A stretch of DNA of 56,447 nucleotides from positions 1 to 56,447 of IMG/VR virus record IMGVR_UViG_3300012232_000014; one strand, 5' to 3'. The notes beneath the pieces were generated by a model, which ran no database searches, was not told where the DNA came from, and worked only from the letters and a program-made list of their open reading frames with translations. Position numbers and translations under genes: made by a program. Shown piece by piece: positions 5,945-36,181 of this stretch; within the stretch, counting starts at the first letter, position 1, and each line of letters starts with the position of its first letter. Source of the stretch: a virus. Lineage: Duplodnaviria; Caudoviricetes.

Positions 5945-5989
5945 TGTGAAATCTCCTTGACTGAAACGATTACGTTCGAATCAAAGCGA

Positions 5990-6057: not shown

Positions 6058-6078
6058 CCGAATACAACGAGCGACGAA

Positions 6079-6891: not shown

Positions 6892-6908
6892 GACATTCTC
6901 TCCTTCGG

Positions 6909-8405: not shown

Positions 8406-8627
8406 CTATCGAGGAGTCCTTGTATGTGGATTGTAGTTCGACGGTAGATGTGTCCGGCGCGACAACGGTAGATCTTTGACGTTTGTCACCGGAGTCAATG
8501 CGCTCATATCGGCATTCAGTACTCGAACCGTTTCACCTGTCTCGTTCACTTCGTGAAACTGACCCTTGTACCAGATACCGACTACGTGTTTGACCTTGAC
8601 CCACTGCCCTTCACGCGGTATGAACAT
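8406..8627 (-). CDS. Hypothetical protein
   Basis: Abuts neighbours on both sides; 73 aa. Confidence 0.6.
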   Translation of the reverse strand: MFIPREGQWVKVKHVVGIWYKGQFHEVNETGETVRVLNADMSALTPVTNVKDLPLSRRTHLPSNYNPHTRTPR

Positions 8628-8628
8628 G

Positions 8629-9027
8629 CTACTCTCCGGTGAATTGTAATGTGATCTTGATCTGATCCCCGTTGTTCTGAATGTTATATGGACCGTTCGT
8701 AAACCGTTCCACCCACATCAGGATTGTACTGGTGGTTTGGTTCACGAGATATCCATACACATTGCCCAGCGCACCGGTGAAAGTAAAGGTCTGTTCTGGA
8801 TACGCCGCACTGGTTGGTGATCCCGGTGTAATAGACCATGAGCCGGGAGCCAGCAAGATATCGGCATACCCAAAGCCGGTCGCTTCGGTGTAGGTGGCAA
8901 ACGTGTCGGTCTCCGATGGTGTGATGTTATTAGTGAACAATTTCAATCGACCGTTTTGTGGCGCAGTCTTATTAAGGATGTTCTGTAACATTACATCTTC
9001 GCCGACGTTCGGAACCAGTAAGGCCAT
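8629..9027 (-). CDS. Small fibre/appendage-type virion protein
   Basis: LKLFTNNITPSETDT...TEATGFGY...YPEQTFTF...YGYLV pattern; AGGAG RBS. Confidence 0.65.
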   Translation of the reverse strand: MALLVPNVGEDVMLQNILNKTAPQNGRLKLFTNNITPSETDTFATYTEATGFGYADILLAPGSWSITPGSPTSAAYPEQTFTFTGALGNVYGYLVNQTTSTILMWVERFTNGPYNIQNNGDQIKITLQFTGE

Positions 9028-9036
9028 CGAGAGCTC

Positions 9037-9501
9037 CTACCCGAAGCAGTTGATTTCGAGGAACGAATTCTTCCGCACGCTGATTTGATTCACCGCGTCG
9101 AGCACGTTCTGTGAGAACTGAAACTGCAGTACACCGTCGGTCGGGCCCATCTCGAGATGCCCGGAAATCCGAAGTATGTGCTGACCAATCACCGGGAGAG
9201 CGCCAGCCATCGTACCGTTCAACTGCGCACGCACGAACGCAGACGTCACGCAATCAATCACTTCATACGCAAACTGGCTAGCCAACGCATCGACTGGAGG
9301 ATTCAACTTGAACTTGTATCCCGACGTAGTACCAAACAGCTGAAAGAGGACGAACGCGTTGATAGTATACCGCCGAAAAGATTCAACGGTAACAAACAAT
9401 TCACTATCATCCTTCAGCCCAGTCTGTGTTACTTGCTCGCTGCCTAAAATTTTCTGGGCGACGACCAGTGCGATGTCACCTCGGTTGATACTCTGTGCCA
9501 T
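9037..9501 (-). CDS. Fibre-tip-like beta-sandwich protein
   Basis: DDSELFVTVES...GVLQFQFSQNV...VRKNSFLEI resembles minor tail protein C-terminal domains. Confidence 0.5.
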   Translation of the reverse strand: MAQSINRGDIALVVAQKILGSEQVTQTGLKDDSELFVTVESFRRYTINAFVLFQLFGTTSGYKFKLNPPVDALASQFAYEVIDCVTSAFVRAQLNGTMAGALPVIGQHILRISGHLEMGPTDGVLQFQFSQNVLDAVNQISVRKNSFLEINCFG

Positions 9502-9518
9502 CTCAGGGATTCCCCCGG

Positions 9519-10205
9519 TTAAAATAGAACGACTTCCGCCCAACTCATCACGAGATTGACCGTCACAGTTCCGGTAGCAAGTGCAGTCGGTCCCCACAGA
9601 ACTTTCAGACCTTCAGCGATCGTCAGTACTGGAGGATGACCGTAGAGTGAGTCCGACACATACAGTTCTTGCATCGGAACTCCGGTACCCAAACCGATGA
9701 GTGCCGGAGACAAAGACGTTTGACCAAACGCCTGCGCATCCGCCGTTGACGTACCTCCAGTGATCCCGGCTGCAGCCGATGCCACGACCAATTGCGCCGC
9801 ACCAGATGTACCCATACTGGTACGCATCTTTTGGTTATTGGCCGTCGGCACGATCGACGTAATATTGGTGGTCTCACTGACGATGTACGCGCGATGAATG
9901 GTGGCGACGATCGGGTCCTGTCTCTGGGCAGTAACGGCTGTCACCACCGTTACGCCGACGAGCAACCGAGTGAGTACGAACAAGGACGTCTGATCCGTCC
10001 ATCTCGCACTCATCATGACGGAGTTTGCTGCTGGTGCGATCGCGGACGTTGATGCCGCCACTCGATAGTGACCAAGCGTTCGTCCGAATCCCGCATATTC
10101 CAATGGACGCAACGCAACACGTGCTGCAAGGAACGTCGGATCGACAGCTTGTGCAGCAGGTGCAATCGCACCGGGGTTGGCGGTACCAACGATCTGTGTC
10201 TGCAT
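9519..10205 (-). CDS. Hypothetical virion protein
   Basis: AAGGAG RBS; 228 aa; Ala/Thr-rich. Confidence 0.6.
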   Translation of the reverse strand: MQTQIVGTANPGAIAPAAQAVDPTFLAARVALRPLEYAGFGRTLGHYRVAASTSAIAPAANSVMMSARWTDQTSLFVLTRLLVGVTVVTAVTAQRQDPIVATIHRAYIVSETTNITSIVPTANNQKMRTSMGTSGAAQLVVASAAAGITGGTSTADAQAFGQTSLSPALIGLGTGVPMQELYVSDSLYGHPPVLTIAEGLKVLWGPTALATGTVTVNLVMSWAEVVLF

Positions 10206-10216
10206 CTCAATCTCCT

Positions 10217-10609
10217 TTACGTGATTTCGTCATCGCGCATGTTCTGTGCCATCTCGAGAAGATCATTCTCTTCTGGCTGCAATGGAATTGGTGCCTGGAA
10301 GACATGACCGAGCATACCACGTTGTCTAGGCTGTAATTGTGTCGGCTGGATCATGTTTGACATCGGGTGTAACCACTCTACGAGCATCTGCATACCGATC
10401 CGCGTCGCCCGCATCTCGTCAAGCATCTGTTGCGCGACGTCCTGAGACTCGACCACGCGCATGGGGTTCCCGTTTTCGTCTGCAATCGAAATGATCTGCA
10501 GTTGAACGGTCGCGATGGAACCATCCGTTTGCAGGACTTCCATCTGCAAGTTTGAAATCTTCTTGCCTGTAGAATCCGGCGCGACTTGAACGAGTGATGC
10601 ACGCGGCAT
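10217..10609 (-). CDS. Hypothetical protein
   Basis: MPRASLVQVAPDSTGKKI; start overlaps the upstream stop (TAATG). Confidence 0.6.
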   Translation of the reverse strand: MPRASLVQVAPDSTGKKISNLQMEVLQTDGSIATVQLQIISIADENGNPMRVVESQDVAQQMLDEMRATRIGMQMLVEWLHPMSNMIQPTQLQPRQRGMLGHVFQAPIPLQPEENDLLEMAQNMRDDEIT

Positions 10610-10818
10610 TAGGAGCCTCGCTTGTTCCCGTTCACCAGATGCATGTCCACGACACTGGCTGGTTGAACTTTTTGTTCCATCGACTTCGCTCGTTCGAGCA
10701 CGACATCTTTCGCGATCGAAAGCAAGCCGTAGGAGATCAGCTTGTTGTCGATGCACCCAGAGACCGACACACGTCCAGCATCGTCCATCACGATTTCCAG
10801 CCTCGCGACTTCAGCCAT
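10609..10818 (-). CDS. Hypothetical protein
   Basis: MAEVARLEIVMDDAGRVSVSG; packed between neighbours. Confidence 0.55.
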   Translation of the reverse strand: MAEVARLEIVMDDAGRVSVSGCIDNKLISYGLLSIAKDVVLERAKSMEQKVQPASVVDMHLVNGNKRGS

Positions 10819-10823
10819 GTCTT

Positions 10824-11240
10824 TCACCGTATCCTTATCAACGCTGTAAGTGACGTGGGCTCTGGCAGCGTTACCAGAAAGTTCCCATTGGTGCTCGTGT
10901 AGTCTTGACCGAGATCGAGCACCGCAACGGCTCGGTTTTGTTTGGATGCATTGTAGATCAACGCTCCGCGTGCGGTGATCGTGGCCATCGGCCAGAGCGG
11001 ATCCGCCCAATCTAGGTAGGCTACTCGGTTCGATAGCTGGGCCTGATATCCCGACAAGGCCTGACCGCCTGCATCGTAGCCTTGTGAGCCGATCACTTCC
11101 CCATCAGTGGTATACACCGTGGTCGCTGGAGAAAGTTCGGCCTTGGACGAGTACAGCGCCATACGATACACGTCGGACGGGGCGTGGATCCCGAGCAGGA
11201 TCTCGAGACGGAACGAATCGGCCACACCTTGAATGATCAT
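10824..11240 (-). CDS. Small fibre/baseplate-type virion protein
   Basis: SFRLEILLGIH...YRMALY...TTVYTTDGEV...GY.AGG...TITARGALIYN...AVAVLDLG, a pattern I recognise from phage structural regions. Confidence 0.7.
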   Translation of the reverse strand: MIIQGVADSFRLEILLGIHAPSDVYRMALYSSKAELSPATTVYTTDGEVIGSQGYDAGGQALSGYQAQLSNRVAYLDWADPLWPMATITARGALIYNASKQNRAVAVLDLGQDYTSTNGNFLVTLPEPTSLTALIRIR

Positions 11241-11380
11241 GCGTTCTCCGGATGATGCTTGTAGTACTCAATGGTTCGCAGTCGTTTCAACGCCTTGGCG
11301 CGTGAGGATGGCTTGGACAGACGTTTCTTTCCGTCCTGACTCATCACCACGTACTTTCGAGGACCAACACGTTTCAACAT
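11237..11380 (-). CDS. Small basic protein (47 aa)
   Basis: Read manually: MLKRVGPRKYVVMSQDGKKRLSKPSSRAKALKRLRTIEYYKHHPENA; exactly fills the gap after the portal gene. Confidence 0.7.
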   Translation of the reverse strand: MLKRVGPRKYVVMSQDGKKRLSKPSSRAKALKRLRTIEYYKHHPENA

Positions 11381-11381
11381 G

Positions 11382-12860
11382 TTACTCTTCCGTCACTTGA
11401 TACTTGACGGCACCATCCGGACCCGTGATGGTTTTCTTTTTCGGCGGAACCACCGGTGGCTGAGGCTCCGGATTGTTTTTCTTTTCTTCCGCGATTTCGG
11501 CTTCAATCGATTTCAACTCGTCTTCCGGTGAGATCCCTTCGCGTGTCCATCCACCGGTCTTGAGAATGTTGTACCACGTTGCATAGCTGATCTTGTGTTC
11601 TTGCAAGGATTGCAATGCCGCCTGAATGTCTTGCGAGGATGCCTTGATGTTCAGGTACTCCTTGTTGAGTTCGACACTGGCTTCGGTATCGGCCGGTTTG
11701 TCTTCCGTGCCGGTCCACCAGGCCACCGTCTGGAGTACCATTGATAAGCCGAGTTCGATCGATCCCGCGATGGTGCGAAGATTCGCCACATCTCCGGCAT
11801 GCCGCATACGAACGGCGGATGCGGTCTCCTGTACGGTTGCAGAATCCTCTAGCAGTCGGGCACCTAGCGTGGCCATCTGCTTTTTCTTCTCACTCATCGC
11901 GGTGGAAATGGACGCCAGACCCTGCCCGGTGAACTCCAACATGCCGGCATGCCCGCCCTGATCGAGCTCCCAGACTTTGCTAGGACCAATCGGTAACGGT
12001 TCCGTACTGGAGTTCTTTGCTCCGGCCACCCATGGTGTGGGCAAGGCCACAAGATGAAGGCCGTATTCGTAATCTACACTATTGCGCCAATGTCCGAGAT
12101 TGACATCGGCTAGATCAATCAATGGCGGCGTCTCGAGATCTGGCGTGACATTGCTCGGACAAATGAACACGAACGGAATGAAGTTGAGTGCAATACCACG
12201 ACGCACGAGCGTGGTCCTCCCCAATGAGATCCACTCGCGATCTCCACCGGTCTTCTCTTGTTCCTGATATAACTCGACGGTTGCAATGCCGGCTTCGAGT
12301 CGGAGCACGCGATACTGCGTTACGGTGAGACAAACGAATGGATCCTTGGGATCCGGCGTTTCCTTTCGCTCACGCAGCACCAAGTGGTACAGCATGTCGT
12401 CGCCACCGATACGGGTGGTACGCCAATTGATAATGTCTTCGGCACAGTAGCCCACGCAGTACGGCCGACCATCGGTGACCGGTTCTGGAGGCATGTCCGT
12501 CAAGATGCCGTACCGTCCGACCAACATGATCTCTTTGCCGACGGCCTGTGAAAACATCTCGAAGGGAATGTTGGTCAGTGTAATGTCGTCGAGATAGGTC
12601 TTGATGGCTTCCGGGAATTCGACTTCAGCCGGTTCTTGATAGATCGCCCCGGTCATGCCTTCGGTCGTGCGTTTGACCGCGTTGTAGAAATTTCCCCGTT
12701 CACGGTAGGCTTGATTCTCTGCCACGTCCTTCGCTGGAAGAGATGGACAGTAGCGAACTCCAGCCTTGAGGATAGCGTCCCGACCGCCGAAGCAGTCGCG
12801 TAGTCGTGACCACTTCACGCGCATCTCGTCGTAGTCGGTACGTGTACTGTCTACCGGCAT
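11382..12860 (-). CDS. Portal protein (DUF4055-like)
   Basis: AYRERGNFYN, VGRYGILTD, AEDIINWR, PPLIDLADVNLGHWRNSVDY and MATLGARLL motifs. Confidence 0.9.
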   Translation of the reverse strand: MPVDSTRTDYDEMRVKWSRLRDCFGGRDAILKAGVRYCPSLPAKDVAENQAYRERGNFYNAVKRTTEGMTGAIYQEPAEVEFPEAIKTYLDDITLTNIPFEMFSQAVGKEIMLVGRYGILTDMPPEPVTDGRPYCVGYCAEDIINWRTTRIGGDDMLYHLVLRERKETPDPKDPFVCLTVTQYRVLRLEAGIATVELYQEQEKTGGDREWISLGRTTLVRRGIALNFIPFVFICPSNVTPDLETPPLIDLADVNLGHWRNSVDYEYGLHLVALPTPWVAGAKNSSTEPLPIGPSKVWELDQGGHAGMLEFTGQGLASISTAMSEKKKQMATLGARLLEDSATVQETASAVRMRHAGDVANLRTIAGSIELGLSMVLQTVAWWTGTEDKPADTEASVELNKEYLNIKASSQDIQAALQSLQEHKISYATWYNILKTGGWTREGISPEDELKSIEAEIAEEKKNNPEPQPPVVPPKKKTITGPDGAVKYQVTEE

Positions 12861-12862
12861 GA

Positions 12863-13162
12863 CTATGAATCCTTGGGACAGAAGTCCCGCAGGCCGACGG
12901 TGGGAAGCACCGGTTGATACAGTTGATTGGGATTCTGAAAGCCGGGATTGAAGGTCAGCTGCTCGATGAAGAGATCGGCACCGGCAATGAGCGCATCACG
13001 TTCTTCCGAGGTGAGCGTCCATCTCGAGATGCACCGTCCCTCTGGTCCATCCAGTTGCACCAACGGCAACGGCCGATACTGCGGTTGATCTTTCGCCAAC
13101 ACCCGGACTTGATGGGGTGGCAGGAAAGCACGATCCTCGTCCTCGATCATCACCGGTTCCAT
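12863..13162 (-). CDS. Hypothetical phage protein
   Basis: AKDQPQYRPLP...ISRWTLTSEER...QLTFN..QPV; between terminase and portal genes. Confidence 0.7.
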   Translation of the reverse strand: MEPVMIEDEDRAFLPPHQVRVLAKDQPQYRPLPLVQLDGPEGRCISRWTLTSEERDALIAGADLFIEQLTFNPGFQNPNQLYQPVLPTVGLRDFCPKDS

Positions 13163-13164
13163 GA

Positions 13165-14631
13165 TTACCCCCAACACGCTTCGCGAACACGAACTTCCGA
13201 ATTGCCACCGGTGTACACGAGATTCGACAGCATCATGCTATCGGCATCATCCGGTGATGGTTTTCCTCTGGCGCGAATGTCATCCTTAGATTCCATTTGA
13301 ATCTGGCCGCGTGAGTTCCGTTTGTATCGCAGGTCCACGAGTTGCGCGGCCAGATCGTCGTCATCCGCGTCAATGTCTACGAGACCGGCTTGGAAGAGTT
13401 CGCGGAGTCCCCAGTAGCCTTCGGCACGGATGTTCGCGAAGTGCTCTTTGTCCTTCGCAGGCTTGGAGACATTGACACCTTCTACCACCTTGGCGATCGG
13501 TTGTGAGACTTTCAGTTCGGCCGCACGGTTGACCACCCCACGACCAATGCCGATCTCATCTATCTTCGCCTTGGTAATGAGTTGCTCGGGTGGGGCAGCG
13601 GCCAGAATGGCCAGCAGTTCTCCGCAGGTCTCCATGGTGTCTGGCGTCTGTGTGCGTTTCACAATCCGGAAACGTGGACCGTGTCGTACGCAGAAGGTGC
13701 TGTTGTTGGTCCCTCCGCCGACGTCCACTCCAAGCTCGATGGGAAGTGCGGGAGGCAAGTCCCGCAGCTGCGCATTCTTGATCCACTTGATCGGGATGAG
13801 TCCATCGGTGGTGGTGTCGGGGAAGCGCCCGAGCACTTTACTGATCCAGAATGGATTCGCTTCGCCCCACTTGCGGCGTTTCTCCTCCACCCACAGGGGA
13901 CCGACCAGCAACGGTCGGATGCGATCCGGGACCGGCTCCTTGGTAAAGTTCGGGGTATCGAACGCGGAAATGGGAATGACATGCCAACCGGAGCCGGGTT
14001 TGCAAATGTTCGCGAATTCTGTTTCGGGATCGTCCGGGTTCCCGATGGCGAGGAACCGGGAATCGTCATTGGCGATGAGCGAGTCGGCTGCTTCCCACAG
14101 TGCGGTACTGTTGATGCCTCCGGCTTCGTCAAAAATCACCAGCACATATCTGGCATGAATCCCTTGGAACGCAGCCGGATCCATATCATCCGGCTTCATG
14201 CCGAACGCGACGAGCTCCTCTTTCCCTGCCGTGGTGGGGAGGAACCACTCGGTTTGATTCGTGCGGCCAATGAGATTGGACTTGCCGTGCGCGCGATTGA
14301 TCTCACGCCAGAGAATGTTTCGGACTTGTCTCGCCGTCGGAGCGGAGGTGACCACGAAGGCTTCACCGATCGGATGGGTACAGATCCAATGGGCCGCGAT
14401 GCGTGCCGCGAGAAAGGACTTGCCGGATCCGTGACAGGACGGGACGGCGGTCTTGCGGTTCAATTGTACTGACTCCACGATGAGCCGTTGCTTGGACCAC
14501 AAGAACTCTTTCAACACGTCAGTCATCCAACGGACTGGATCCGACAAATGTTGCCGACGATGGAGCTCCGCCTGAATCGCGGCCAATTCCGCAACCGGAT
14601 TCCTCGAACGAAGTGCAGAGGTTCGGCTCAT
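13165..14631 (-). CDS. terL: Terminase large subunit
   Basis: Walker A SCHGSGKS, Walker B LVIFDEAGG, IGNP coupling motif, nuclease motifs LGVDVG and SPDDADS. Confidence 0.95.
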   Translation of the reverse strand: MSRTSALRSRNPVAELAAIQAELHRRQHLSDPVRWMTDVLKEFLWSKQRLIVESVQLNRKTAVPSCHGSGKSFLAARIAAHWICTHPIGEAFVVTSAPTARQVRNILWREINRAHGKSNLIGRTNQTEWFLPTTAGKEELVAFGMKPDDMDPAAFQGIHARYVLVIFDEAGGINSTALWEAADSLIANDDSRFLAIGNPDDPETEFANICKPGSGWHVIPISAFDTPNFTKEPVPDRIRPLLVGPLWVEEKRRKWGEANPFWISKVLGRFPDTTTDGLIPIKWIKNAQLRDLPPALPIELGVDVGGGTNNSTFCVRHGPRFRIVKRTQTPDTMETCGELLAILAAAPPEQLITKAKIDEIGIGRGVVNRAAELKVSQPIAKVVEGVNVSKPAKDKEHFANIRAEGYWGLRELFQAGLVDIDADDDDLAAQLVDLRYKRNSRGQIQMESKDDIRARGKPSPDDADSMMLSNLVYTGGNSEVRVREACWG

Positions 14632-20159: not shown

Positions 20160-20566
20160 AGATCGGACAAGATGAATTCGAATCCGGCTGCGAACTCGTA
20201 GATGTGACCAGTCTGCATCGGCCGAACATTCGATGGTCTCTGACAGATGCCACTGGCCACGAACACCGGTGGTACGATGGAGATCGTCCGGCTACGTCTT
20301 ACGATCCTCAACGGACCTACACGGTGCCCACGCTGATCTGGGTGAAGGACGGTGAAGAGTACTGGGAAGACTCCGACGAACCGCACGACATCGGACATCT
20401 CGAATGCCGGCTCTGTGGAGAGCACATCCAACCGGGGTACACGGCCGATGAGACCGTGCAGTACATTCCCGGTCTGCGGTGGTACCGAATCAACGGACGG
20501 CACGTATCCAAGGAAGAATTTGAGCAGAAACTGGCAGAGATCAAATCACACGTGGTGAAGCCGTGA
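20156..20566 (+). CDS. Hypothetical protein
   Basis: GGAG RBS; CRLCG. Confidence 0.65.
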   Translation: MKIGQDEFESGCELVDVTSLHRPNIRWSLTDATGHEHRWYDGDRPATSYDPQRTYTVPTLIWVKDGEEYWEDSDEPHDIGHLECRLCGEHIQPGYTADETVQYIPGLRWYRINGRHVSKEEFEQKLAEIKSHVVKP

Positions 20567-20769
20567 TCATACCGATCGAGATGAAAAAGGGAAAGGATGG
20601 CGTCTGGCGTATATCACATACGCAGAATTCGTATATCTCGTTTGAGGAAGCAGCCGACTATCTTCGGGATCGAATCGGGGTACCAGTGTACATTTTCGAT
20701 GAGGTGATGGAGACTAAGGATGCGAAACCAACTCGTGATCGGCATCGTGGGCTCCCGCCGAAGAGATGA
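20563..20769 (+). CDS. Hypothetical protein
   Basis: GTGA coupling to the previous gene. Confidence 0.5.
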   Translation: MIIPIEMKKGKDGVWRISHTQNSYISFEEAADYLRDRIGVPVYIFDEVMETKDAKPTRDRHRGLPPKR

Positions 20770-21169
20770 TCTCGAGACTCACGAACTCGGGATCGCCGCG
20801 TTCGTGCGACTGTGCCGAGCACTCCGCCAGAAGAAAAAGACCGTCACGGCGGTCGTCTCAGGCGGAGCACAGCAAGGCTTAGATCGCCTGGCTCCGTTGC
20901 TTGCCAAACGATTCGGTCTTACGCTCATCGTCCATTTCCCCGACTACAAAACTTTCGGCCGCATCGCTCCGTTCATGCGCAACACGAAGGTAGCGCACGA
21001 CGCCGACTATCTGATTGCAGCGGTGCATCGCGATCGTACCGGTGGCACTGAGGACACGGTAAAAAAGTTTCTGCGTAACCATCCTGAGAGCCGGGTGGTG
21101 TTGGTGCGACAGCGTGCGCAGACGAAATGCCGTGGATTGATAATGCAAGTTACGGGGAATTTTCAGTGA
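20720..21169 (+). CDS. SLOG-superfamily (DprA/YspA-like) nucleotide-binding protein
   Basis: IGIVGSR, VVSGGAQQGLD, APFMRNTKVAHDADYLIA and GGTEDT motifs. Confidence 0.8.
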   Translation: MRNQLVIGIVGSRRRDDLETHELGIAAFVRLCRALRQKKKTVTAVVSGGAQQGLDRLAPLLAKRFGLTLIVHFPDYKTFGRIAPFMRNTKVAHDADYLIAAVHRDRTGGTEDTVKKFLRNHPESRVVLVRQRAQTKCRGLIMQVTGNFQ

Positions 21170-21343
21170 AAATCGCACCTCGAAAAAGGGGGGGTAATCG
21201 GATTTTTCCGTTCAAGCCGGGTTCCCGGAAGGCCGTCTGGCCGGGTTTTCGGCAGTGTCGAAGTGGTGAATTTCCTAGGGAATTCGGGACTACCATTTTC
21301 AGGCCTAAATAGTGCGAAAATAAAAGTGAAAGTCCCATGTTTT

Positions 21344-21395
21344 TGGTGATTATTATTTCACCACGCAACCTTTCTTTAGGGCATAATTTCTGATA
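21344..21395 (+). promoter_or_regulatory. Putative early promoter with an overlapping operator-like inverted repeat
   Basis: CATAAT at 21382-21387; TGGTGA-N8-TCACCA at 21344-21363; AT-rich upstream; no good -35 hexamer. Confidence 0.5.
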
Positions 21396-21895
21396 GTCGG
21401 GCAGTGGGGATACGGGGTGCGCGGCCAAGAGTGCTAGCCACCCAGCGCCAATGCGGTAAATCCCGGTACCCCTGCTGACCGCGACGACGCCGGAACCCAC
21501 GCTGTCACGTTCGTAAGCGCAGGACCGGTTCTTTGAAAACAAAATAGCGAGAGGCTTTCAGAAAGCTGTCGGGTGCGTTCACCCGGCCGAACAGCGGAAT
21601 AGCGTTGCCTGCCCGAAATGCACGGTGAGTGCGAAGTGGCACACGGCATAAATCGCGAAACGCTCTCGACTGTCCGAGGACAGCAGCAGACCTGAAGCGT
21701 TCCAACAAACCGGATCCTACCGGTGTGGGACGCCAGAGTGGCCGACGCACTTCACTTCGTTTCTGTTCAGCAGGCCTACAGTGGCCGCACCTTACCAAGT
21801 GCTGACGAACGATTTTGAGGACAGCTTGCCGGACTGAGACCGGTGGGCTGTAAAATCCCAATCGCAATTTCGCGGTTGCCGGTTCCAAGGCCGGA
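21396..21895 (+). ncRNA. Candidate ~500-nt multi-hairpin structured RNA / leader
   Basis: No credible gene; many stems with G-U pairs on the + strand, e.g. ACAGCTTGCCGG/CCGGTGGGCTGT and CGGGTG/CACCCG. Confidence 0.55.
21528..21540 (+). promoter_or_regulatory. rrn-type boxA antitermination element
   Basis: GTTCTTTGAAAAC matches the boxA form found in many bacterial rRNA leaders and spacers; preceded by a hairpin. Confidence 0.6.
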
Positions 21896-21905
21896 CGGAG
21901 GATGA

Positions 21906-22013
21906 ATGAAGAAAACATTCTGTAAGGGCTGTACCGCCGAACTGACCGCAGCGGATGCGCACGCCGGAGCCTGCACGCAGTGCGGGACCAAAACGAAAAG
22001 GTCGAATCGTTAA
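21906..22013 (+). CDS. 35-aa zinc ribbon
   Basis: Read manually: MKKTFCKGCTAELTAADAHAGACTQCGTKTKRSNR; GGAGG RBS. Confidence 0.65.
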   Translation: MKKTFCKGCTAELTAADAHAGACTQCGTKTKRSNR

Positions 22014-22198
22014 CTCGTTGATGATGGAGATGATGACAATGGTGACCACTTTCTCAATGCGCAATCGCTTCCACGGCTTCCTTGTACTCGCGACCTTGTT
22101 CATCCTCTCCTTGGGTGGACATTCGCACGTTGAGGTGCCGACGTTCTGCACCGGCTCACATTCCGTTAATCGCCGTAACCGTTAAGAAGGAGATGGCC

Positions 22199-22516
22199 AT
22201 GACGAACAAGACACTGACGCGTCTGCTGCACAAACGCTCGCTCACCGCCAACGAACGCGTGCAGGTGATGCGTGCGGCCCATCGGCTGCTGAACCAGTCC
22301 ATCAACTGTTTTTCTGCCGTGCAAGACGCGTGCGATACCGCTGCGGAGACGATCATGAACTTGCATGATGATCGCCGATCTGTCAGAAGGAGATCTGACT
22401 TGAGCTCCAAGGAAGAGGAGCACATGGACCGGCTCGAAGAGACGCGCGACGAACTCGAAACACTCGTAGAGACGTTGGACAATCTGGATATACCTGATAC
22501 CAGTGAGGTGCGATAA
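22199..22516 (+). CDS. Hypothetical helical protein
   Basis: AAGGAG RBS. Confidence 0.65.
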   Translation: MTNKTLTRLLHKRSLTANERVQVMRAAHRLLNQSINCFSAVQDACDTAAETIMNLHDDRRSVRRRSDLSSKEEEHMDRLEETRDELETLVETLDNLDIPDTSEVR

Positions 22517-22779
22517 TGAAGATTGGAATCAACGGACACGTCGGCCGCGTCATCGCGTCATACACCGGTCGGATGGTGGCACTCATCGAAGTAGTGCCCG
22601 ACCCGACTATCCAAGGCGTATTCGGCGTCCGTGTCGTCACTCTGCCGAAGGTGATCAAGACCGGTACGGAACCGCCACAGGAAAATTTCTTCCTGATCAA
22701 AGAGGTTCCGTTGCACAAGATCACCGAGGATGATCTCGAGGAAGTCGAATTCATCGAGTGGCCACCGATTACCAGCTAG
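22516..22779 (+). CDS. Hypothetical protein
   Basis: GAGGTG RBS; TAATG coupling. Confidence 0.65.
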   Translation: MKIGINGHVGRVIASYTGRMVALIEVVPDPTIQGVFGVRVVTLPKVIKTGTEPPQENFFLIKEVPLHKITEDDLEEVEFIEWPPITS

Positions 22780-28837: not shown

Positions 28838-29040
28838 GACGGTTCAAGATTGTGGAACAGTCAAACACCACGATTTATCGTGGCGTGATCACGGCCGAAG
28901 ATCTCCGGAAGCAATTCAAGATTCCGGACAAGGCTGAGATCACGGTCATGGTGCCCACCGGCGGCGACTGGTCTGGCACCGAACTTGAAATCGGAAAGGA
29001 TGTACCCGGTATTCGGGTGCAGTGGGAGAACGTGAAATGA
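28834..29040 (+). CDS. Hypothetical protein
   Basis: GGAGG RBS; VPTGGDWSG. Confidence 0.65.
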   Translation: MRRFKIVEQSNTTIYRGVITAEDLRKQFKIPDKAEITVMVPTGGDWSGTELEIGKDVPGIRVQWENVK

Positions 29041-30299
29041 AAACGAATCCGGTAACCTTCTTCTCTCGCACACAGACCGGGAAGGTTCAAACGTGGTCCT
29101 GCTGGATCGAGTCTGACGGTATCACGGTCACCAGTCGCTGGGGACAGAAGAATGGCAGGATGCAGGTGACCCAAGACAAGCAGACCTCACGCGGTCGCAA
29201 GGGTACGCGAGCCTTCAAAACTCCTCAACAGGTCGCCAGAGAGGAACACGCACGGCAGGTGGAACGAAAACTCCGAGCCGGATATGTAGAAGCCGAAGAA
29301 CGAGCGTCAGCGGTACGATTGGAGGAACTAAAAACGGATCTGGATTTCGATCGGCTCCCACGGACTTTCGCTCCAGCCAAGCCGGTTCGAGAGATCGCCT
29401 TCGATATCGCTGCCGAGTACGACAAAGACGGCAAGTTGATGAAGCAGCGCAAACGTGATGGCATGCGGCACTACCTCGTGGCTGGCAAGGATGGTCGGCT
29501 ACGCGTGTTCAGTCGTGGGATGGATGATATGACCGCTCATTTCACCCGGCTCATTCAGGAACTCACTCTGCCTGCCGGCACGATCTTGGACGCGGAGTTC
29601 GTGGTGAGCAACGACCGGAACGATGATGATTTCAAGGCCGTGTCAGAGATCTGTCGGTCGAAGCCAGAGTTGGCTAAACGGAAGATGATCCACCGGGAGC
29701 ACAACGGCAACACCATCCAGTTTCTCGTATTCGATATGTTGTTCTACGATCGGCTACCGACATGGCAACTTCCATATCGAGAACGATATGAAAGCATGGT
29801 GACGGCTCTGGAGAAGGCGCACAAGCCCAGTCAGCGGACTCGGTTCAATCACGTCTGTCCGATGCCGTGTCTTCTGTATCCGTTGAAGAAATGCGTAGAA
29901 CGGATTCGGGAGTTCGGCTGGGAAGGCTTAGTCCTCTGGCGTGCAGACCAGGCGACCGTGGTGCACATGAACCGGTCTCCCAAGCGATGCAACTGTTACA
30001 AGTTCAAACCGATGCGTGAGGACGACTTCATCGCGGTGGGGTACGAACTTGGAACCGGACGCAACAGCAAGGTGGTCGGTGCGTTGAAGCTGGAGATCAT
30101 TTCGGAGGACACGCGATTTCGATTCTCGGTCGGCAACGTCGGGACCGGCTTCGATGACGCCACACGCGTCGCTGCGTTGACGTGGAAGTATCCGTGCGTG
30201 GTGCAGGTCAAGTATGAAAAAATGTCGGACACCGGATTGCGGTTTCCGGCTTTTCTTCGCAAGCGTGACGACAAGAAACCGAAGGAATGCCGGATGTAA
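29037..30299 (+). CDS. lig: ATP-dependent DNA ligase with an N-terminal WGR-like domain
   Basis: Motif I KRDGMR, LDAEF, FLVFDML, WEGLVL, YKFKP and LRFPAFLRKRDDK; N-terminal SRWGQ...KLRAGY. Confidence 0.92.
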   Translation: MKTNPVTFFSRTQTGKVQTWSCWIESDGITVTSRWGQKNGRMQVTQDKQTSRGRKGTRAFKTPQQVAREEHARQVERKLRAGYVEAEERASAVRLEELKTDLDFDRLPRTFAPAKPVREIAFDIAAEYDKDGKLMKQRKRDGMRHYLVAGKDGRLRVFSRGMDDMTAHFTRLIQELTLPAGTILDAEFVVSNDRNDDDFKAVSEICRSKPELAKRKMIHREHNGNTIQFLVFDMLFYDRLPTWQLPYRERYESMVTALEKAHKPSQRTRFNHVCPMPCLLYPLKKCVERIREFGWEGLVLWRADQATVVHMNRSPKRCNCYKFKPMREDDFIAVGYELGTGRNSKVVGALKLEIISEDTRFRFSVGNVGTGFDDATRVAALTWKYPCVVQVKYEKMSDTGLRFPAFLRKRDDKKPKECRM

Positions 30300-30334
30300 A
30301 GCTTCCGATAATGAAACGAAAGGAGGTGAGTGCG

Positions 30335-30436
30335 ATGATCTGGGTATACCGTGCAGGCTTGCTGTTCCTGTACTACGAACTGCAAGCAGGTGGTTCCGAT
30401 TGGACGGTGGACATGCGGGACGTCTACGGCTGGTAG
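30335..30436 (+). CDS. 33-aa aromatic-rich micropeptide
   Basis: Perfect SD GAAAGGAGGTGAG; MIWVYRAGLLFLYYELQAGGSDWTVDMRDVYGW. Confidence 0.6.
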   Translation: MIWVYRAGLLFLYYELQAGGSDWTVDMRDVYGW

Positions 30437-30482
30437 ACGACTCGGCATCCAGCAGCGCTGAAAAAGAAAGGAGGTGAGGATC

Positions 30483-30560
30483 ATGGATGAATCGATTTTC
30501 TGGGAAACGATCTGGGCGGTGATCGTCGCATGCGCAGACACCATCGTGTGGGGTGGGTAG
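30483..30560 (+). CDS. 25-aa hydrophobic micropeptide
   Basis: Identical SD GAAAGGAGGTGAG; MDESIFWETIWAVIVACADTIVWGG. Confidence 0.6.
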   Translation: MDESIFWETIWAVIVACADTIVWGG

Positions 30561-30578
30561 TCTGACAGCGTAGTCTGC

Positions 30579-30614
30579 ACCCGGAGTTTGTCGCTGGACG
30601 GCTCCGGGTCTTTT
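30579..30614 (+). terminator. Intrinsic terminator
   Basis: ACCCGGAG...CTCCGGGT stem followed by CTTTT. Confidence 0.65.
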
Positions 30615-30628
30615 ACAAGGAGATGGTG

Positions 30629-30967
30629 ATGACGGACATTCGAGAGTTCGTTCGTAAGCTGCGGAGAGCAGCAGATGCGATCGACGATCTGTACGAAGTA
30701 CCGACACGTACGAAACCGTCGAACGAAACCCCGGAGATAGCGAAACAGATCCTCCGGCAAGGAAAATCCAAGAACGGGAAACGCGGACACCGGATGATAC
30801 AGGCACTTCAGATCATCAAGTGGAACGGACCGGTGCACGCCGCGTCAATAGCCAAACAGATGAAACTCAAGACCTCGGCCAACGTCTACGCGATTCTGGA
30901 ACGGCTGGTTGAACAGAAGAAGATTCACAAGGCACGTGACGGCCGCTATACGGTGGTGGCGTCATGA
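30629..30967 (+). CDS. Winged-helix DNA-binding protein
   Basis: GPVHAASIAKQMKLKTSANVYAILERLVEQKKIHK...GRY. Confidence 0.75.
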   Translation: MTDIREFVRKLRRAADAIDDLYEVPTRTKPSNETPEIAKQILRQGKSKNGKRGHRMIQALQIIKWNGPVHAASIAKQMKLKTSANVYAILERLVEQKKIHKARDGRYTVVAS

Positions 30968-30991
30968 TGAAGATCCGCTCGACAGAAACCG

Positions 30992-31147
30992 GTGAGAGGA
31001 GGACGCAGTCGATTGCCGGCATGCGTGCTGGGAGAGATCGAACGGAAGGTCCAGCAGGATGCCGATCGGTATCACGTTTCGAAGTCGTTCGTTGTCAGCG
31101 TCGTACTCGCCAACCACTACGGGATTCGGAAACAGGAACAGTTTTAG
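30992..31147 (+). CDS. Possible ribbon-helix-helix-like protein (start uncertain)
   Basis: Read manually: VRGGRSRLPACVLGEIERKVQQDADRYHVSKSFVVSVVLANHYG. Confidence 0.4.
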   Translation: MRGGRSRLPACVLGEIERKVQQDADRYHVSKSFVVSVVLANHYGIRKQEQF

Positions 31148-31158
31148 AAAGGAGCCTC

Positions 31159-31332
31159 ATGGCTGACGACGAGAAGACGCCTTGGGAACGTCTTGACAAA
31201 ACCACTGCTCGGCTCAAGGTACCGGGTGGTTGGGTCCTACGATCTGTTGCATGGTATACGGACTCTGTCTCCTTGCATCATGTCTTCGTTGCCGACCCAG
31301 AACACGAATGGAAACTCGAAGGAGGTCAGTGA
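31159..31332 (+). CDS. Hypothetical protein
   Basis: AAAGGAG RBS; TARLKVPGGWVLR...FVADPEHEW. Confidence 0.7.
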   Translation: MADDEKTPWERLDKTTARLKVPGGWVLRSVAWYTDSVSLHHVFVADPEHEWKLEGGQ

Positions 31333-31565
31333 TGGCTGGAATGAAAACTCTCGGCAAGAACGTGCAGTACTCGATTACCGGCAACAAGCTCACCATCGAA
31401 ATTGATCTGTCCAAGGAGCACGGTGCGTCAGCATCCGGTAAGACGATCACGGTGGCCACCACGTCTGGGAACAAGAACATCGGCGGTCCCGGTCCACAGC
31501 CGACGTTCATCGGCTTGAACGCGTATCGGTATCCGGACGAGAAGAAAGCGAAGGCGAAGAAATGA
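31332..31565 (+). CDS. Small protein of unknown function
   Basis: AAGGAGG RBS; NKLTIEIDLSKEHGASASGKTITVATTSGN...IGLNAY. Confidence 0.75.
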   Translation: MAGMKTLGKNVQYSITGNKLTIEIDLSKEHGASASGKTITVATTSGNKNIGGPGPQPTFIGLNAYRYPDEKKAKAKK

Positions 31566-31674
31566 GAGTCGCGTTTTGGATTCTGATCGGCAACGTGGGC
31601 CGACGCTTGACGGACTGGTCCACCCGTCATCTCGAGACGCGTCATCTCGTGGATCAGGTCAAGGAGAAATTGGA

Positions 31675-31905
31675 ATGCCGACGGAATCCACGTATCGTAT
31701 CGGCGATCGCGTTGTCCGCAGTTGGCGTGGTGAAGCAGATCGGTTCGGCACCATCGTCGAAATCTATCGCGGTGTCCCGGCTGCCACTCGACCTGGAGAA
31801 GAACTAGCAGCGGTGCGGTGGGACGATACCGGCCTTACCGAACGGGGATATCTAACTCAGAGTGGAGGACTGAGAAGGACTCAAAAAGAAAACGGACAGG
31901 CTTAA
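31675..31905 (+). CDS. SH3/KOW-like hypothetical protein
   Basis: AAGGAG RBS; YRIGDRV...GTIVEI...AVRWDD. Confidence 0.6.
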   Translation: MPTESTYRIGDRVVRSWRGEADRFGTIVEIYRGVPAATRPGEELAAVRWDDTGLTERGYLTQSGGLRRTQKENGQA

Positions 31906-32025
31906 CTTGCTGGCTCGACGGGGGTTAAAATTTTCCCCCGTTGAGTCCGGCTCCGGGCGATAATCTCGCCTTCCCCGGAAGCTTCGACGGCGACGATGAT
32001 GGTGGCGAGGAAGGGATTTTGTTTC

Positions 32026-32751
32026 ATGAAAATTCGTCTGCGACGACGTGCGGATGTGCCACCGGTCCGCTCATTCAGAATTCGCAGAAGGAGGAAATTG
32101 GCACTAGACCGCACACTCTACATGCGGCCCATTCGACCAGTGCGCATCGGTCATGTCAACACGGCTTGGTCAAACGATGGATGGTACCGACACGGTCTTC
32201 CAATCAACAAGTCTTTAGTGCTGACACTGAAGTGCGGGCACGTCGAAATGGTACCGCAACGTCCGTTCAAACTTCGCAAGCTGGTTCACTGCCCGATGTG
32301 CGTGCGGCTGTGGACGGAACGGACGCTGGAAGCTGAAGAATCGAACGCACGCCAAGCAAAGGTTTCGAAACGGAAAGCTGAACTCGTCGAACAACTAGAG
32401 GAGAGAACAGACATGGCTAAGATCAAGAAGGCGAAGAAGAGCAATGACGATGACCGGCGTGGACGCAAGGTGTTCGAATTCGTGAAGGTGGCCAAGGGCG
32501 TCGAAGAAGGCACCATCATGGGCATCGTGCATGACGCGATCAAGAAGGTCAAGTCTGGCACGGTCGCCGAGATCACCGAAGCAGCGGTCAAAGGCGGACT
32601 CAAGGACGTCACCGGGCAGGATCCGATGGTCCAGACCGGCGTGATGCTCAACCGTCTGAAGCACAAGGGTGCGGTCCGCAAGGTCAAGGCTGACGGCAGC
32701 ACCAGCGAGAAGAAGGTCACGCTGAAACTGAAGAAGAAAAAGGCAGCCTAG
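32026..32751 (+). CDS. Zinc-binding domain plus Lys-rich winged-helix (HARE-HTH-like), paralogue 3; probable internal start at 32413
   Basis: LKCGH...CPMC; GAGGAG before ATG 32413; TIMGIVHDAI...GQDPMVQTGVMLNRL; Lys-rich tails. Confidence 0.7.
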   Translation: MKIRLRRRADVPPVRSFRIRRRRKLALDRTLYMRPIRPVRIGHVNTAWSNDGWYRHGLPINKSLVLTLKCGHVEMVPQRPFKLRKLVHCPMCVRLWTERTLEAEESNARQAKVSKRKAELVEQLEERTDMAKIKKAKKSNDDDRRGRKVFEFVKVAKGVEEGTIMGIVHDAIKKVKSGTVAEITEAAVKGGLKDVTGQDPMVQTGVMLNRLKHKGAVRKVKADGSTSEKKVTLKLKKKKAA

Positions 32752-32772
32752 GTATCGGCGACGGGATCGTCC

Positions 32773-32970
32773 ATGTCCAGAAGGAAGAAACGTCCGCATG
32801 TGAGCCGAGTGCGGCCGCTGTCTGTTCCGCTGGCCTTCTACATGGACGATCCCATTCAACCGGTAACACCCGAACAGTGGAACTATCTCGAGACGCGTGC
32901 TCGCATTCTTCAATTCAAAAAACGACGAACCGTCTGCCGCTGGCCTGAGGATAAATCGAATGGCAACTGA
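32773..32970 (+). CDS. Hypothetical basic protein
   Basis: Fills the gap between neighbours. Confidence 0.45.
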   Translation: MSRRKKRPHVSRVRPLSVPLAFYMDDPIQPVTPEQWNYLETRARILQFKKRRTVCRWPEDKSNGN

Positions 32971-33232
32971 ACGTTTGGTCGGAACGGTCGCTGGCATCAA
33001 CCGAGACAAAGGATTCTTTTTCATCTGTGGACCGGATGGTCGAGACTACTTTGCTTCTGTGCGTGACCTGCCCAATCACCGATCCCTCAACACACTGATT
33101 CCCCAACAAACGCGCATTGCATTCACTCCAGAAGAGCGATCGAAAGGTCCGGCTGCAACTCGGTTGCGTATTCTGGATGACGATGATCAACCCGAAGATG
33201 ATCCCACGGCCGTTCGACTTGGCTTGAAGTAG
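32960..33232 (+). CDS. Cold-shock (OB) domain protein
   Basis: GTVAGINRDKGFFFI...DYFAS...KGPAATRL (RNP1/RNP2-like). Confidence 0.85.
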   Translation: MATERLVGTVAGINRDKGFFFICGPDGRDYFASVRDLPNHRSLNTLIPQQTRIAFTPEERSKGPAATRLRILDDDDQPEDDPTAVRLGLK

Positions 33233-33236
33233 ATTC

Positions 33237-34571
33237 GTGCGGAAAATCTTTGTCCCGCACCAACGTGAAGCCTTGGACTACGCCTTGAGCCGGAAGGCTG
33301 TCGGTCTATTCTTGGCTATGCGTCTGGGAAAGACTCCAGTGGCCATCCGGTGGGCACGGAAGAAGGGTCTGCGAAAGGTGCTGGTGGTGGCGCCACTCTC
33401 CGTGCTCCCTGGCATGCAATGGGAAGACGAGATCAAACAAGAATGTGGACGGTCCGCACACATTTGGCCGAACGAACGGAAGCAGGATTGGCTTGATGCC
33501 GCGGAGTCTCGAGACGGGTGGTACGGCATCAACTACGAAGCCGTGCGCAGTCGGCCGGAGATCCTGGATCTGAAGTGGGACGGTATTATCCTCGATGAGT
33601 CTACCCGTATCCGAAACCCCAAGGCTCAGATCACCAAAATCCTTCTCAACAACACCGAGCACATTCGCCATCGCGCCATTCTCTCCGGATTGCCGAATCC
33701 AGAATCACCGCTTGATTTGTTCTGCCAATTGAAATTCCTCCACGGCTCCTTCCTCGGCTACGAAAACTTCTGGGCCTTCCGTCAAGCCAAGTTCAACGAG
33801 ATCGCCTACCAATGGTACCCAAGGAAGGGTGTCATAAATCAGATCAAGGTGGCCGTGCATAAACTCTGCTTCGTTCGCTCGCAGCGACAAGTGGGCATGG
33901 GGAACGAGAAAGTCTTCGATCGACGGTACGTGTATCTCACCCCGGCACAACGACGGTTACAAGACGAGATCCGCAAGAACTTCACGGCTGGCACACTCAG
34001 TACCAAGTGGGCTCCGGTGCAACAGACGTGGTTGGCCAGACTCGCTGGAGGCTTCACGCCTGAGGGTGAGGTCATGGCCGAACGGAAATTGACGCTACTG
34101 AAACAGATCCTGACGGAAGAGAAGCCAAAGGAACAGGTGGTGGTTTGGTTTCGATTCACTGCGGAGATCCGTGCCGCCTACGACTTGCTGAAGAAGGCTG
34201 GCGTCCGATGCAAGGTCATTCGCGGTAAGACCGATAAACGAAAACGGCCCATCATTCAAAGAAAGTTCCATGCCGGCATCTACCGAGTGCTGCTGATACA
34301 GGTCCAGGTCGGACAACACGGTCTCAACCTCAGTTGCGCGAACACCGCTATCTACTACAGCAACGCGTGGGACCACGAGATTCGATCCCAGAGTCAGCAG
34401 CGCATCGAGCACATGATGAAGAAAGTTCCCCTCCAGTACATCGACCTGGTCACCAGAGACTCCGTAGATGAACCGGTGCTCGATGCACTGCAAGAAAAGA
34501 AACGCGAGTCCAATCGGTTCCTCCGGGTCGTGATGTCGCGGTTCGTTGAAGGGCTCCGGCCTGCGGCATGA
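33237..34571 (+). CDS. SNF2-like superfamily 2 helicase
   Basis: PHQREA, AMRLGKT, ILDESTRIRN, LSGLP, GQHGLNL and QSQQRIEH motifs. Confidence 0.9.
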   Translation: MRKIFVPHQREALDYALSRKAVGLFLAMRLGKTPVAIRWARKKGLRKVLVVAPLSVLPGMQWEDEIKQECGRSAHIWPNERKQDWLDAAESRDGWYGINYEAVRSRPEILDLKWDGIILDESTRIRNPKAQITKILLNNTEHIRHRAILSGLPNPESPLDLFCQLKFLHGSFLGYENFWAFRQAKFNEIAYQWYPRKGVINQIKVAVHKLCFVRSQRQVGMGNEKVFDRRYVYLTPAQRRLQDEIRKNFTAGTLSTKWAPVQQTWLARLAGGFTPEGEVMAERKLTLLKQILTEEKPKEQVVVWFRFTAEIRAAYDLLKKAGVRCKVIRGKTDKRKRPIIQRKFHAGIYRVLLIQVQVGQHGLNLSCANTAIYYSNAWDHEIRSQSQQRIEHMMKKVPLQYIDLVTRDSVDEPVLDALQEKKRESNRFLRVVMSRFVEGLRPAA

Positions 34572-34771
34572 TCATTCGAAAGCCTCGCGAGATCTCGAGA
34601 CCGACGATGCCCTTGCCCATCCATCCCTGTCCGTGCAAAGCCAAGCACGACTTCAACTGCCGGAACAAGTCAGCATTCCGTGATATGGTTTGTCTGGAGT
34701 GCTTCATCAAGTGCAACGGAGAAAGTCACCAACCCCGCTACATTACGATACGGAGAAGGAGAAGGCGATGA
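34568..34771 (+). CDS. Small Cys-rich protein
   Basis: ATGA couplings; several Cys. Confidence 0.5.
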   Translation: MIIRKPREISRPTMPLPIHPCPCKAKHDFNCRNKSAFRDMVCLECFIKCNGESHQPRYITIRRRRRR

Positions 34772-35711: not shown

Positions 35712-35712
35712 A

Positions 35713-36066: not shown

Positions 36067-36070
36067 TTTT

Positions 36071-36164: not shown

Positions 36165-36181
36165 ATTGAAAGGAATTCGTA

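Follow-up and report, generated by a model that had tools for sequence, protein, structure and literature searches.

In the sections of the two reviews drawn on here (PMC5408937, PMC6154101), the published twister ribozyme cuts at a U-A step, and the general base is a conserved G at the base of P2. There are two pseudoknots: T1 consists of three Watson-Crick pairs between L4 and L1, and T2 joins a conserved GC of L2 to two bulged nucleotides of L4. A G-C pair extends P4. Twisters and hammerheads in bacteria occur near phage genes, and the portion of PMC6765202 used here puts forward the processing of polycistronic mRNAs as their possible role. For the natural task of twisters in bacteria and phages, the phage clade described here offers a concrete, testable case. 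It is represented by IMG/VR virus record IMGVR_UViG_3300012232_000014, a tailed phage of 56,447 bases and 98% completeness; this whole stretch of DNA is called the window. A 736-nucleotide (nt) gap between genes, at 21170-21905, houses a structured RNA on the + strand (21396-21896). Its 3' part is assigned to the twister class, and its 5' domain of 421 nt is a candidate new large phage RNA family. Together they probably yield an early phage RNA, stable and about 456 nt long, whose own twister would form its 3' end and which most likely acts in trans.

The hairpins listed in the initial annotation of this stretch are all present at their places, and most also appear in the minimum-free-energy (MFE) fold. 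The annotation's proposal of a new large phage non-coding RNA fits the 5' domain but not the last three hairpins. On comparative grounds, these correspond to P1, P3 and P4 of a twister in the type-P5 layout, a known ribozyme class, which they form together with the conserved single strands in between. Its parts are as follows.

21811-21894, + strand: twister ribozyme, type-P5 layout (RF02684, 18.3 bits; model R3, 60.3 bits; T1/T2 covariation; strand-specific fold)
21811-14 with 21854-57, + strand: P2, 4 base pairs (bp)
21817-21, + strand: L1, GAGGA, with G21817 as the putative general base
21822-21850, + strand: P1 hairpin, 11 bp, three of them G-U
U21851/A21852, + strand: predicted cut, within G-U-A-A at 21850-53 after P1, in keeping with the N-A cut of the class, whose conserved adenine (the general acid) is followed by A
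21858-59, + strand: L2, CC
21860-77, + strand: P3 hairpin
21879-82 with 21891-94, + strand: P4
21882-91, + strand: L4, 10 nt, G-UUCCAAGG-C, with closing pair G21882/C21891 and an 8-nt loop at 21883-90
21819-21 (GGA) with 21884-86 (UCC), + strand: pseudoknot T1
21858-59 (CC) with 21889-90 (GG), + strand: pseudoknot T2

With the strand entering at the 3' half of P2 and leaving past P4, the layout is the type-P5 permutation. L4, with its closing G-C pair, U and AA, aligns to the Rfam consensus loop, and its differences are confined to two compensated pseudoknot positions. The cut site at U-A and the pairing registers of both pseudoknots match the published structures as these are described in the consulted parts of PMC5408937 and PMC6154101. 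The predicted cut lies 54 nt before the ATG at 21906.

The scores against Rfam are low. A permissive scan of 21000-22100 places Twister-P5 (RF02684) at 21814-21894 with 18.3 bits and an expectation value (E) of 0.46. Genome-wide, the three permuted twister models match this one site, with 18.3 bits for P5 (E 0.0056), 15.4 bits for P1 (E 0.068) and 16.9 bits for P3 (E 0.041); they are not independent of one another, since the P4 loop is common to all. Two results weigh against the assignment. The Rfam gathering scores (37.6, 67.2 and 39.9 bits for P5, P1 and P3) are not reached, and sub-threshold twister matches occur in 8-13 of 14 control genomes, all of them far larger. The sub-threshold match taken alone is only a lead. 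Two relatives have homologous copies, which reach 35.2 and 33.4 bits where the RF02684 cut-off is 37.6. The low scores would be expected because the Rfam models cannot score pseudoknots, so that two compensated changes count as mismatches.

The case for class membership is carried by copies in relatives. Model R3, built from 11 relatives' copies with the window excluded, matches 21807-21898 at 60.3 bits (E 3.6e-14). This is its single significant match in the window; the next matches have E 0.05 and 0.59. The former (52544-52634, - strand) is taken as chance, as it is without the L4 motif and lies inside an open reading frame (ORF) of 1230 amino acids. Relatives of the terminase (57-77% identical) led to contigs G001 and G002, which share patches of the gap, including the P4 loop. 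G002 holds two copies of the motif. In these, the single strands GAGGAC, GUAAAUCC and GGUUCCAAGGCC are identical, and the sequences of P1, P3 and P4 differ yet pair.

An exact-pattern scan of viral contigs gives 30 matches in 25 stretches. By eye, 24 of the matches, in 19 stretches, have a P1 hairpin, and the remaining 6 stretches look like chance. With two pseudoknot positions left free, the relaxed pattern gives 128 distinct matches in 112 stretches, and a P1 of at least 4 bp, of unrelated sequence, is present in 114 of the 128. The pseudoknot counts take in these 114 copies and leave out the 14 matches without P1. The variable pair of T1 is A-U in 74 copies, G-C in 39, G-U in one and A-C in none. 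For T2, the loop end AAGC goes with L2 = GC in 78 of 83 copies and the loop end AAGG with L2 = CC in 31 of 31. P1, P2, P3 and P4 stay paired despite the sequence differences among copies. For example, P2 appears as cgca/tgcg, ggt/acc, gct/agc, gat/atc and tag/cta, and there is variation in the outer pairs of P4 too (both by eye). The GUAA is required by the scan patterns, and its conservation in the 114 copies is thus not independent evidence.

Several points weigh against full activity of the ribozyme in the window itself. Two nucleotides (UU, 21815-16) are inserted between the 4-bp P2 and G21817, with an extra A on the opposite strand. In a tally of P2 over the 114 copies, 107 have 3-5 contiguous pairs adjoining GAGG, and the window is among the 6 with two or fewer. 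In addition, GAUUUU is paired to AAAAUC in the MFE fold, an arrangement in which the adenines of the cleavage site would be buried. [quoted passage not shown] The activity of the window's copy could be reduced, given the 2-nt insertion.

Some viral contigs carry many intergenic twisters of the type-P5 layout: L098 has four copies in 6.2 kb, L158 four, L147 three, and L087 and L136, which form one 46-kb contig, five. All four combinations of T1 (G-C or A-U) and T2 (GC:GC or CC:GG) are found in these contigs. The type-P5 layout seems common in phage contigs, and doubly compensated twisters (T1 A-U, T2 CC:GG) are frequent there. The three A-U/CC:GG copies scored with Rfam, that of the window and those of two relatives, all fall below the gathering cut-off. 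Short copies without P3 (L039 7344-7390; L040, L043-L046, L048, L050-L053 and L056) have a C-run after GUAAA, such as CCCCC, and, immediately ahead of the ribosome-binding site and about 10 nt past P4, a G-run that matches it. Pairing between the two runs would compete with T2 and might couple ribozyme folding to translation.

The 5' domain extends over 21396-21816 on the + strand and contains the following elements.

21396-21485, + strand: D1a, an irregular terminal hairpin of 90 nt at the probable 5' end of the RNA
21486-21531, + strand: D1b, an optional hairpin with a conserved loop of the GUCACGUUCGUA type, its pairing read by eye from folds
21533-21546, + strand: A-rich single-stranded linker UUGAAAACAAAAUA (alignments A1 and A7)
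21547-21568, + strand: 5' strands of the long-range helices A (GCGAGAGGC) and B (UUUCAG, then GCUG), from a duplex search
21570-21585, + strand: hairpin CGGGUG/CACCCG (MFE fold, RNAalifold)
21670-21683, + strand: hairpin CUGUC/GACAG
21684-21697, + strand: 3' strands of helix B, CAGC, AGAC and CUGAAG
21787-21802, + strand: hairpin D4, GCAC/GUGC, with an NCAAN-type loop

Homologues of this domain are found by nucleotide search. With 21170-21815 as query, nhmmer matches L036 over nearly its full length (E 3.3e-24), L055 (2.5e-19), L059 (5e-12), the G002 type (6.9e-11), L038 (1.3e-10), G001 (6e-9) and L060 (0.11). A metagenome scan gives five stretches, of which three are already known contigs and two are new (L073 and the G002-like L069). 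The set comprises nine sequences in six lineages: the window; L036 and G006; L059; G002, G001 and L073; L038; and L060. In these, the RNA including the twister is 351-501 nt long and the 5' domain 274-421 nt; for the window, the limits 21396-21896 nearly coincide with those in the initial annotation. The relatives first reached through two neighbouring proteins (L002-L017, 34-45% identical) show nothing similar to the gap. Scanning viral contigs with a pattern for the linker and helix A gives 14 stretches; eight of them (L061-L068) fail the region profile and are deemed chance. The same pattern and the twister-variant pattern give no stretches in genome contigs, and these scans thus yield no prophage copy or host clue.

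Known RNA families do not account for the domain. None of 4227 Rfam models matches it at E <= 10 in the window or at E <= 5 in five relatives' loci. GOLLD, ROOL, HEARO, OLE, raiA and the riboswitch and leader families give no covariance-model match to 21396-21806 or its homologues. The initial annotation had also set tRNA, tmRNA, RNase P and SRP RNA aside, in agreement with a whole-window Rfam scan at the gathering score (0 matches) and a tRNA/tmRNA scan of the whole window (0 genes). A blastn search of GenBank phages with 21100-22000 gives no match.

When the whole first domain is aligned with MAFFT and folded with RNAalifold, almost no structure appears because the alignment is poor; models from the close group were used instead. 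On the window, L036 and G006, RNAalifold gives 81 pairs, 12 of them changed on both sides. D1a is the same long irregular hairpin in separate MFE folds of all nine sequences. Model R1, from four close relatives (31 pairs, 8 changed on both sides), matches D1a of the window at 50.1 bits (E 2e-9). With filters off, its top match is at the syntenic place in L060, L167 and L168 (18.3, 9.4 and 9.3 bits). A second D1a model, with the window included, has its top match again at the syntenic place, with 22.5 bits for L060 (E 0.002), 13.2 for L059 (E 0.029) and 11.5 for L167 (E 0.88).

D1b is present in the window, L036, G006 and L060 and absent from the G002/G001/L073/L038 group. The A-rich linker is among the best conserved blocks of the 5' domain. 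The 5' strand of helix A has its best duplex partner at the homologous 3' site in eight of the nine sequences, and the pairs covary. By lineage, the strand pairs are GCGACCGGC/GCUGGUCGC, GCGAGCGGC/GCUGCUCGC, CGAGCACC/GGUGCUCG, CCAAGCAGGC/GCCGCUUGG and CCAAGCAAGC/GCUGCUUGG. For the window's strand, CGCUCUCG at 21661-21668 is the best partner. It counts against the proposed fold that helix A is degenerate here, the homologous site at 21741-21748 pairing by only 3+3 bp (by eye). Helix B takes three forms: UUUCAG/CUGAAG (window, L036, G006), UUCCAG/CUGGAG (G002 group) and UUCCGG/CCGGAG (L038, L059).

The smaller hairpins change in a similar manner. CGGGUG/CACCCG is CGCGCC/GGCGCG in L036 and G006, with pair 96-110 changed on both sides. 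By eye, the homologues of CUGUC/GACAG are GUCC/GGAC in G002 and GCGAC/GUCGC in L038, and the D4 stems of the lineages are GCAC/GUGC, GCGC/GCGC, GGCC/GGCC and GCAUGAU/GUCAUGC. Covariation, which the initial annotation had named as a check, is therefore found in the helices of the stretch; the overall fold model of the 5' domain is a prediction. The segment GGCUUUCAGAAAGC (21555-21568) can form either a local hairpin or helix B (21556-61 with 21692-97), and the changes in relatives are compatible with both. The RNA may have two conformations.

The twister stands directly after the 5' domain in nine of nine sequences. The window (98% complete) and G006 (complete) contain exactly one twister each, and it adjoins the 5' domain. 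G007 and G008 also have one twister. No twister is found in the complete G003 or in G005, both of which are without the 5' domain by blastn. The constant fusion and the single twister in two complete or nearly complete genomes point to the making of non-coding RNA 3' ends as one natural job of twisters. A point against this is the second twister that precedes another gene 95-430 nt downstream in G002, G001, L073 and L038; part of the clade thus appears to use twisters as ordinary intergenic processing sites as well.

Paired twisters are located at 2008-2077 and 2296-2366 in L032, 776-844 and 1276-1346 in L038, 556-618 and 714-778 in L049, and 487-553 and 647-714 in L073. One or two small ORFs lie between the twisters in these four relatives, and the second twister stands before a conserved basic protein of about 90-110 amino acids; L036 and G006 have this protein too, without a second twister.

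Two further elements flank the RNA.

21382-21387, + strand: -10-like hexamer CATAAT, 8 nt before the first stem, with no good -35
21897-21901, + strand: Shine-Dalgarno GGAGG, followed by ATG 21906 of a 35-amino-acid zinc-ribbon ORF (21906-22013)

A -10-like hexamer (GATAAT, CATAAT, CATACT or TATGAT) precedes the 5' hairpin in all nine sequences, at a spacing of 6 nt, or 8 nt in the window. Comparison with relatives bears out the initial description of a non-coding, multi-hairpin + strand RNA just 3' of such a hexamer. A promoter function of 21382-21387 is presumed, and it weighs against it that a sigma-70 promoter scan made no call at this site and that a good -35 is lacking.

In the preferred reading, one transcription unit would give two RNAs. 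Transcription would start a few bases after the hexamer, and 21396-21816 would fold into a multi-helix RNA with the 90-nt terminal hairpin, the optional hairpin and the A-rich linker, followed by two long-range helices that enclose a variable insert and then by the conserved-loop hairpin. The next 84 nt would fold as the twister, with the strand ends at the P5 position, and would cut at U21851|A21852. The 5' product of about 456 nt would begin with the terminal hairpin and end with the P1 hairpin and a 2',3'-cyclic phosphate. From established twister chemistry, both of its ends would be expected to resist exonucleases. The 3' product would be an mRNA with a 5'-hydroxyl and a 54-nt leader (P3, P4, GGAGG, ATG 21906), in which the ribosome-binding site lies 3 nt past P4. 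A scan finds no + strand terminator-like site within 20500-22600; because no terminator stands between the promoter-like site and the genes, the ribozyme would be what separates the two RNAs. The released RNA would most likely act in trans as a stable early phage RNA. We infer transcription itself, its start, the cleavage, the stability of the RNA and its action in trans from the sequence, which weighs against the model. A more specific proposal can be made only tentatively: the RNA would represent a new structured class with built-in maturation by a twister. It would accumulate early, its ends protected, and act in trans on a target of the host or the phage; one example would be a decoy or sponge directed against a host defence or an RNA-binding protein of the host. 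The decoy against host defence suggested in the initial annotation is neither supported nor contradicted by these results.

The 5' domain follows the promoter-like site and leads up to the first gene without an intervening terminator, a position that would also suit a cis-acting leader (riboswitch, attenuator or processive antitermination RNA), with the twister trimming the mRNA afterwards. The possible alternation of GGCUUUCAGAAAGC between a local hairpin and helix B is likewise what a switch would show. However, the gene that follows the twister differs in each lineage, and the first ORF 3' of the twister is unrelated between them. Mosaic contigs from other DNA samples (runs X2 and X4) show the same pattern. 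In these, 21170-21389 is about 90% identical, 21390-21521 (D1a and most of D1b) is swapped for 88 other letters, and 21522-21855 has 8 differences (326 of 334 letters identical, 97.6%). Homology stops at 21855, just 3' of the predicted cut, and resumes at 22019 after 274 other letters. The downstream genes are thus swapped while the RNA is kept, and no gene-specific control is conserved. No Rfam riboswitch or leader matches at E <= 10. The HK022 put antitermination RNA is about 70 nt long, has two stem-loops and works tethered to the polymerase by the nascent chain. A fast ribozyme would cut such a tether, which makes the antitermination RNA suggested in the initial annotation less likely. A cis-acting leader is, on balance, unlikely. 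The mosaic joints also indicate that conserved RNA elements may act as recombination joints between gene cassettes.

It is less probable still that function is confined to the twister and the promoter region, with the rest of the 5' stretch kept by recent common descent and its hairpins having no role. The small number of lineages agrees with such a reading and weighs against a trans-acting RNA: there are only six, and two of the groups are close relatives. The domain ranges from 274 to 421 nt, 21390-21521 is replaced by the 88 other letters in the DNA-run relatives, and the folding z-scores are weak in parts (+0.08 for 21486-21620, -1.84 for D1a). The covariation argues otherwise. On alignment A6 (7 rows, 6 distinct), 95.3% of the D1a cells are paired, versus 74.5% in shuffles and 32-46% in slid registers, and none of 500 shuffles reaches any of five measures. 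Both-side changes occur in 19 of 31 pairs, a count that was made on a model-fitted alignment, which favours the structure. Helices A and B stay paired through five different strand pairs. The flanking proteins are only 33-59% identical in amino acids, while the RNA remains detectable by nucleotide search. Descent without function is therefore improbable for the 5' domain.

Folding energy by itself is modest or weak evidence, and the comparison with relatives carries the case. In the shuffle check that the initial annotation had named, the whole stretch has z = -2.22 on the + strand, with 1 of 100 shuffles as good, which is modest evidence only; on the - strand z is -1.32 (7 of 100). The segment 21621-21760 has z = -2.89 (0 of 200 shuffles). 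D1a (21396-21485) folds about alike on both strands (-1.84 on +, -2.00 on -), and the stretch is placed between gene blocks of the phage early region. Both observations would agree with hairpins that act as DNA, in a replication origin, packaging site or operators. This is very improbable, since a strand-specific ribozyme is fused to the domain in nine of nine sequences. The twister region (21807-21898) folds on the + strand only (z = -3.03, 0 of 200 shuffles, versus -0.45 and 64 of 200 on the - strand), its P1 has three G-U pairs, and a repeat search found no repeat array or iterons.

A protein-coding stretch can be dismissed: two minus-strand ORFs of 130 and 137 amino acids (21150-21542 and 21505-21918) do span the gap, but at the protein level they do not resemble a relative's ORF in the corresponding position (BLASTP E = 1.0), none of five gap ORFs is matched in PHROG, the + strand ORFs inside the stretch are only 58 and 31 amino acids long, the largest ORF inside the RNA of a full-length homologous relative is at most 91 amino acids, and the alignment gaps across the stretch are often not multiples of three.

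In the window, the genes for the major head protein, portal and large terminase are on the minus strand (4772-14631), those for DNA polymerase, primase, helicase and ligase on the plus strand (29022-48653), and the tail genes on the minus strand beyond 49600. The stretch is not at the head of the early operon, where the initial annotation had placed it. The + strand block begins near 18576, and the stretch sits 2.6 kb inside it, with a promoter-like site of its own. The gene upstream of the gap (20720-21169) is SLOG/YspA-like (a Pfam match below the cut-off; PHROG 289). It is found only in the window, G001, G002 and L038, and as only these four sequences carry it, it was rejected as a fixed partner of the RNA. 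The Pfam zinc-ribbon matches of the 35-amino-acid ORF downstream are weak and below the curated cut-off. Between the upstream gene and the hexamer there are two conserved elements.

21178-21194, + strand: conserved element CCTCGAAAAAGGGGGGG, directly 3' of the upstream gene's stop; 7 of the 8 rows in alignment A1 have it nearly unchanged
21317-21336, + strand: conserved block of the TAATAAA..GAAAGTC type, about 50 nt before the -10-like hexamer (alignment A1, upstream sequences)

In alignment A1, the first element is absent in L060, and the L055 sequence ends short of it. Its CCTCAAAAAGGGGGGG sequence is nearly invariant, with homologous places in L036, L059, L057, L049 and L038, and a short hairpin of lineage-specific sequence follows it. 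It is possibly the end of the upstream transcription unit; the terminator scan called no + strand terminator at 21178-21194. The second block is seen in the window, L059, the G002/G001/L073 group and L038, and not in L036, G006 or L060. It is possibly an UP element or a regulator site.

Downstream of the RNA, relatives differ from the window at 22037-22049 solely by 3- or 6-base deletions. The deletion pattern fits a coding frame through 22019-22091, such as a putative 76-amino-acid ORF at 21955-22185. The replication genes include a ThyX-type thymidylate synthase domain (39043-40404) and a short-chain dehydrogenase/reductase (43489-44226). In a Pfam scan, the matches of another 20 + strand ORFs are limited to PD-(D/E)XK nuclease, ThyX, AAA_24 and short-chain dehydrogenase; neither an RNA ligase nor an RNA end-healing enzyme is among them.

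Compared with HK022 put as it is generally described, the RNA is alike in that it is structured and would start right after an early phage promoter. It differs in that the 5' domain is 421 nt long and that the ribozyme would cut the tether. With GOLLD and ROOL, as presented in the part of PMC5737381 drawn on, it shares a length of several hundred nt, many helices, carriage by phages and an unknown function. Unlike these, it has no Rfam match and no tRNA genes in the window, and its 3' end would be made by a ribozyme. On the more specific, tentative proposal above, it would be, among large phage RNAs, the first known to owe its maturation to a ribozyme of its own. No description of a twister as the 3' end of a large conserved phage RNA was found in the twister and phage literature covered, which was limited and consisted mostly of abstracts. 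The candidate family of 274-421 nt from six lineages adds a large phage RNA that the Rfam models miss.

The ribozyme itself is closest to Twister P5 (RF02684, clan CL00120). The two are alike in P1, P2, P4 and the optional P3, in L1 GAGGA with the conserved G and A, in the U-A cut followed by A, in the closing G-C and AA of L4, in both pseudoknots and in the ends at the P5 position, as far as the excerpts of PMC5408937 and PMC6154101 describe them. They differ in one T1 pair, A-U here where RF02684 has G-C, and in T2, where CC:GG replaces GC:GC; both changes are compensated. In addition, the window's copy has a long P1 of 11 bp, a P3 hairpin and a 2-nt insertion beside the catalytic G. Like the ribozymes in the consulted portion of PMC6765202, it is intergenic and lies just upstream of a gene start in a phage operon, and four relatives have a second copy. 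What sets it apart from those ribozymes is its constant place as a 3' fusion to a conserved structured RNA of 274-421 nt. Twisters and their nearness to phage genes are thus known from that source, within the part drawn on here, and what is new is the fixed partnership with a candidate RNA family.

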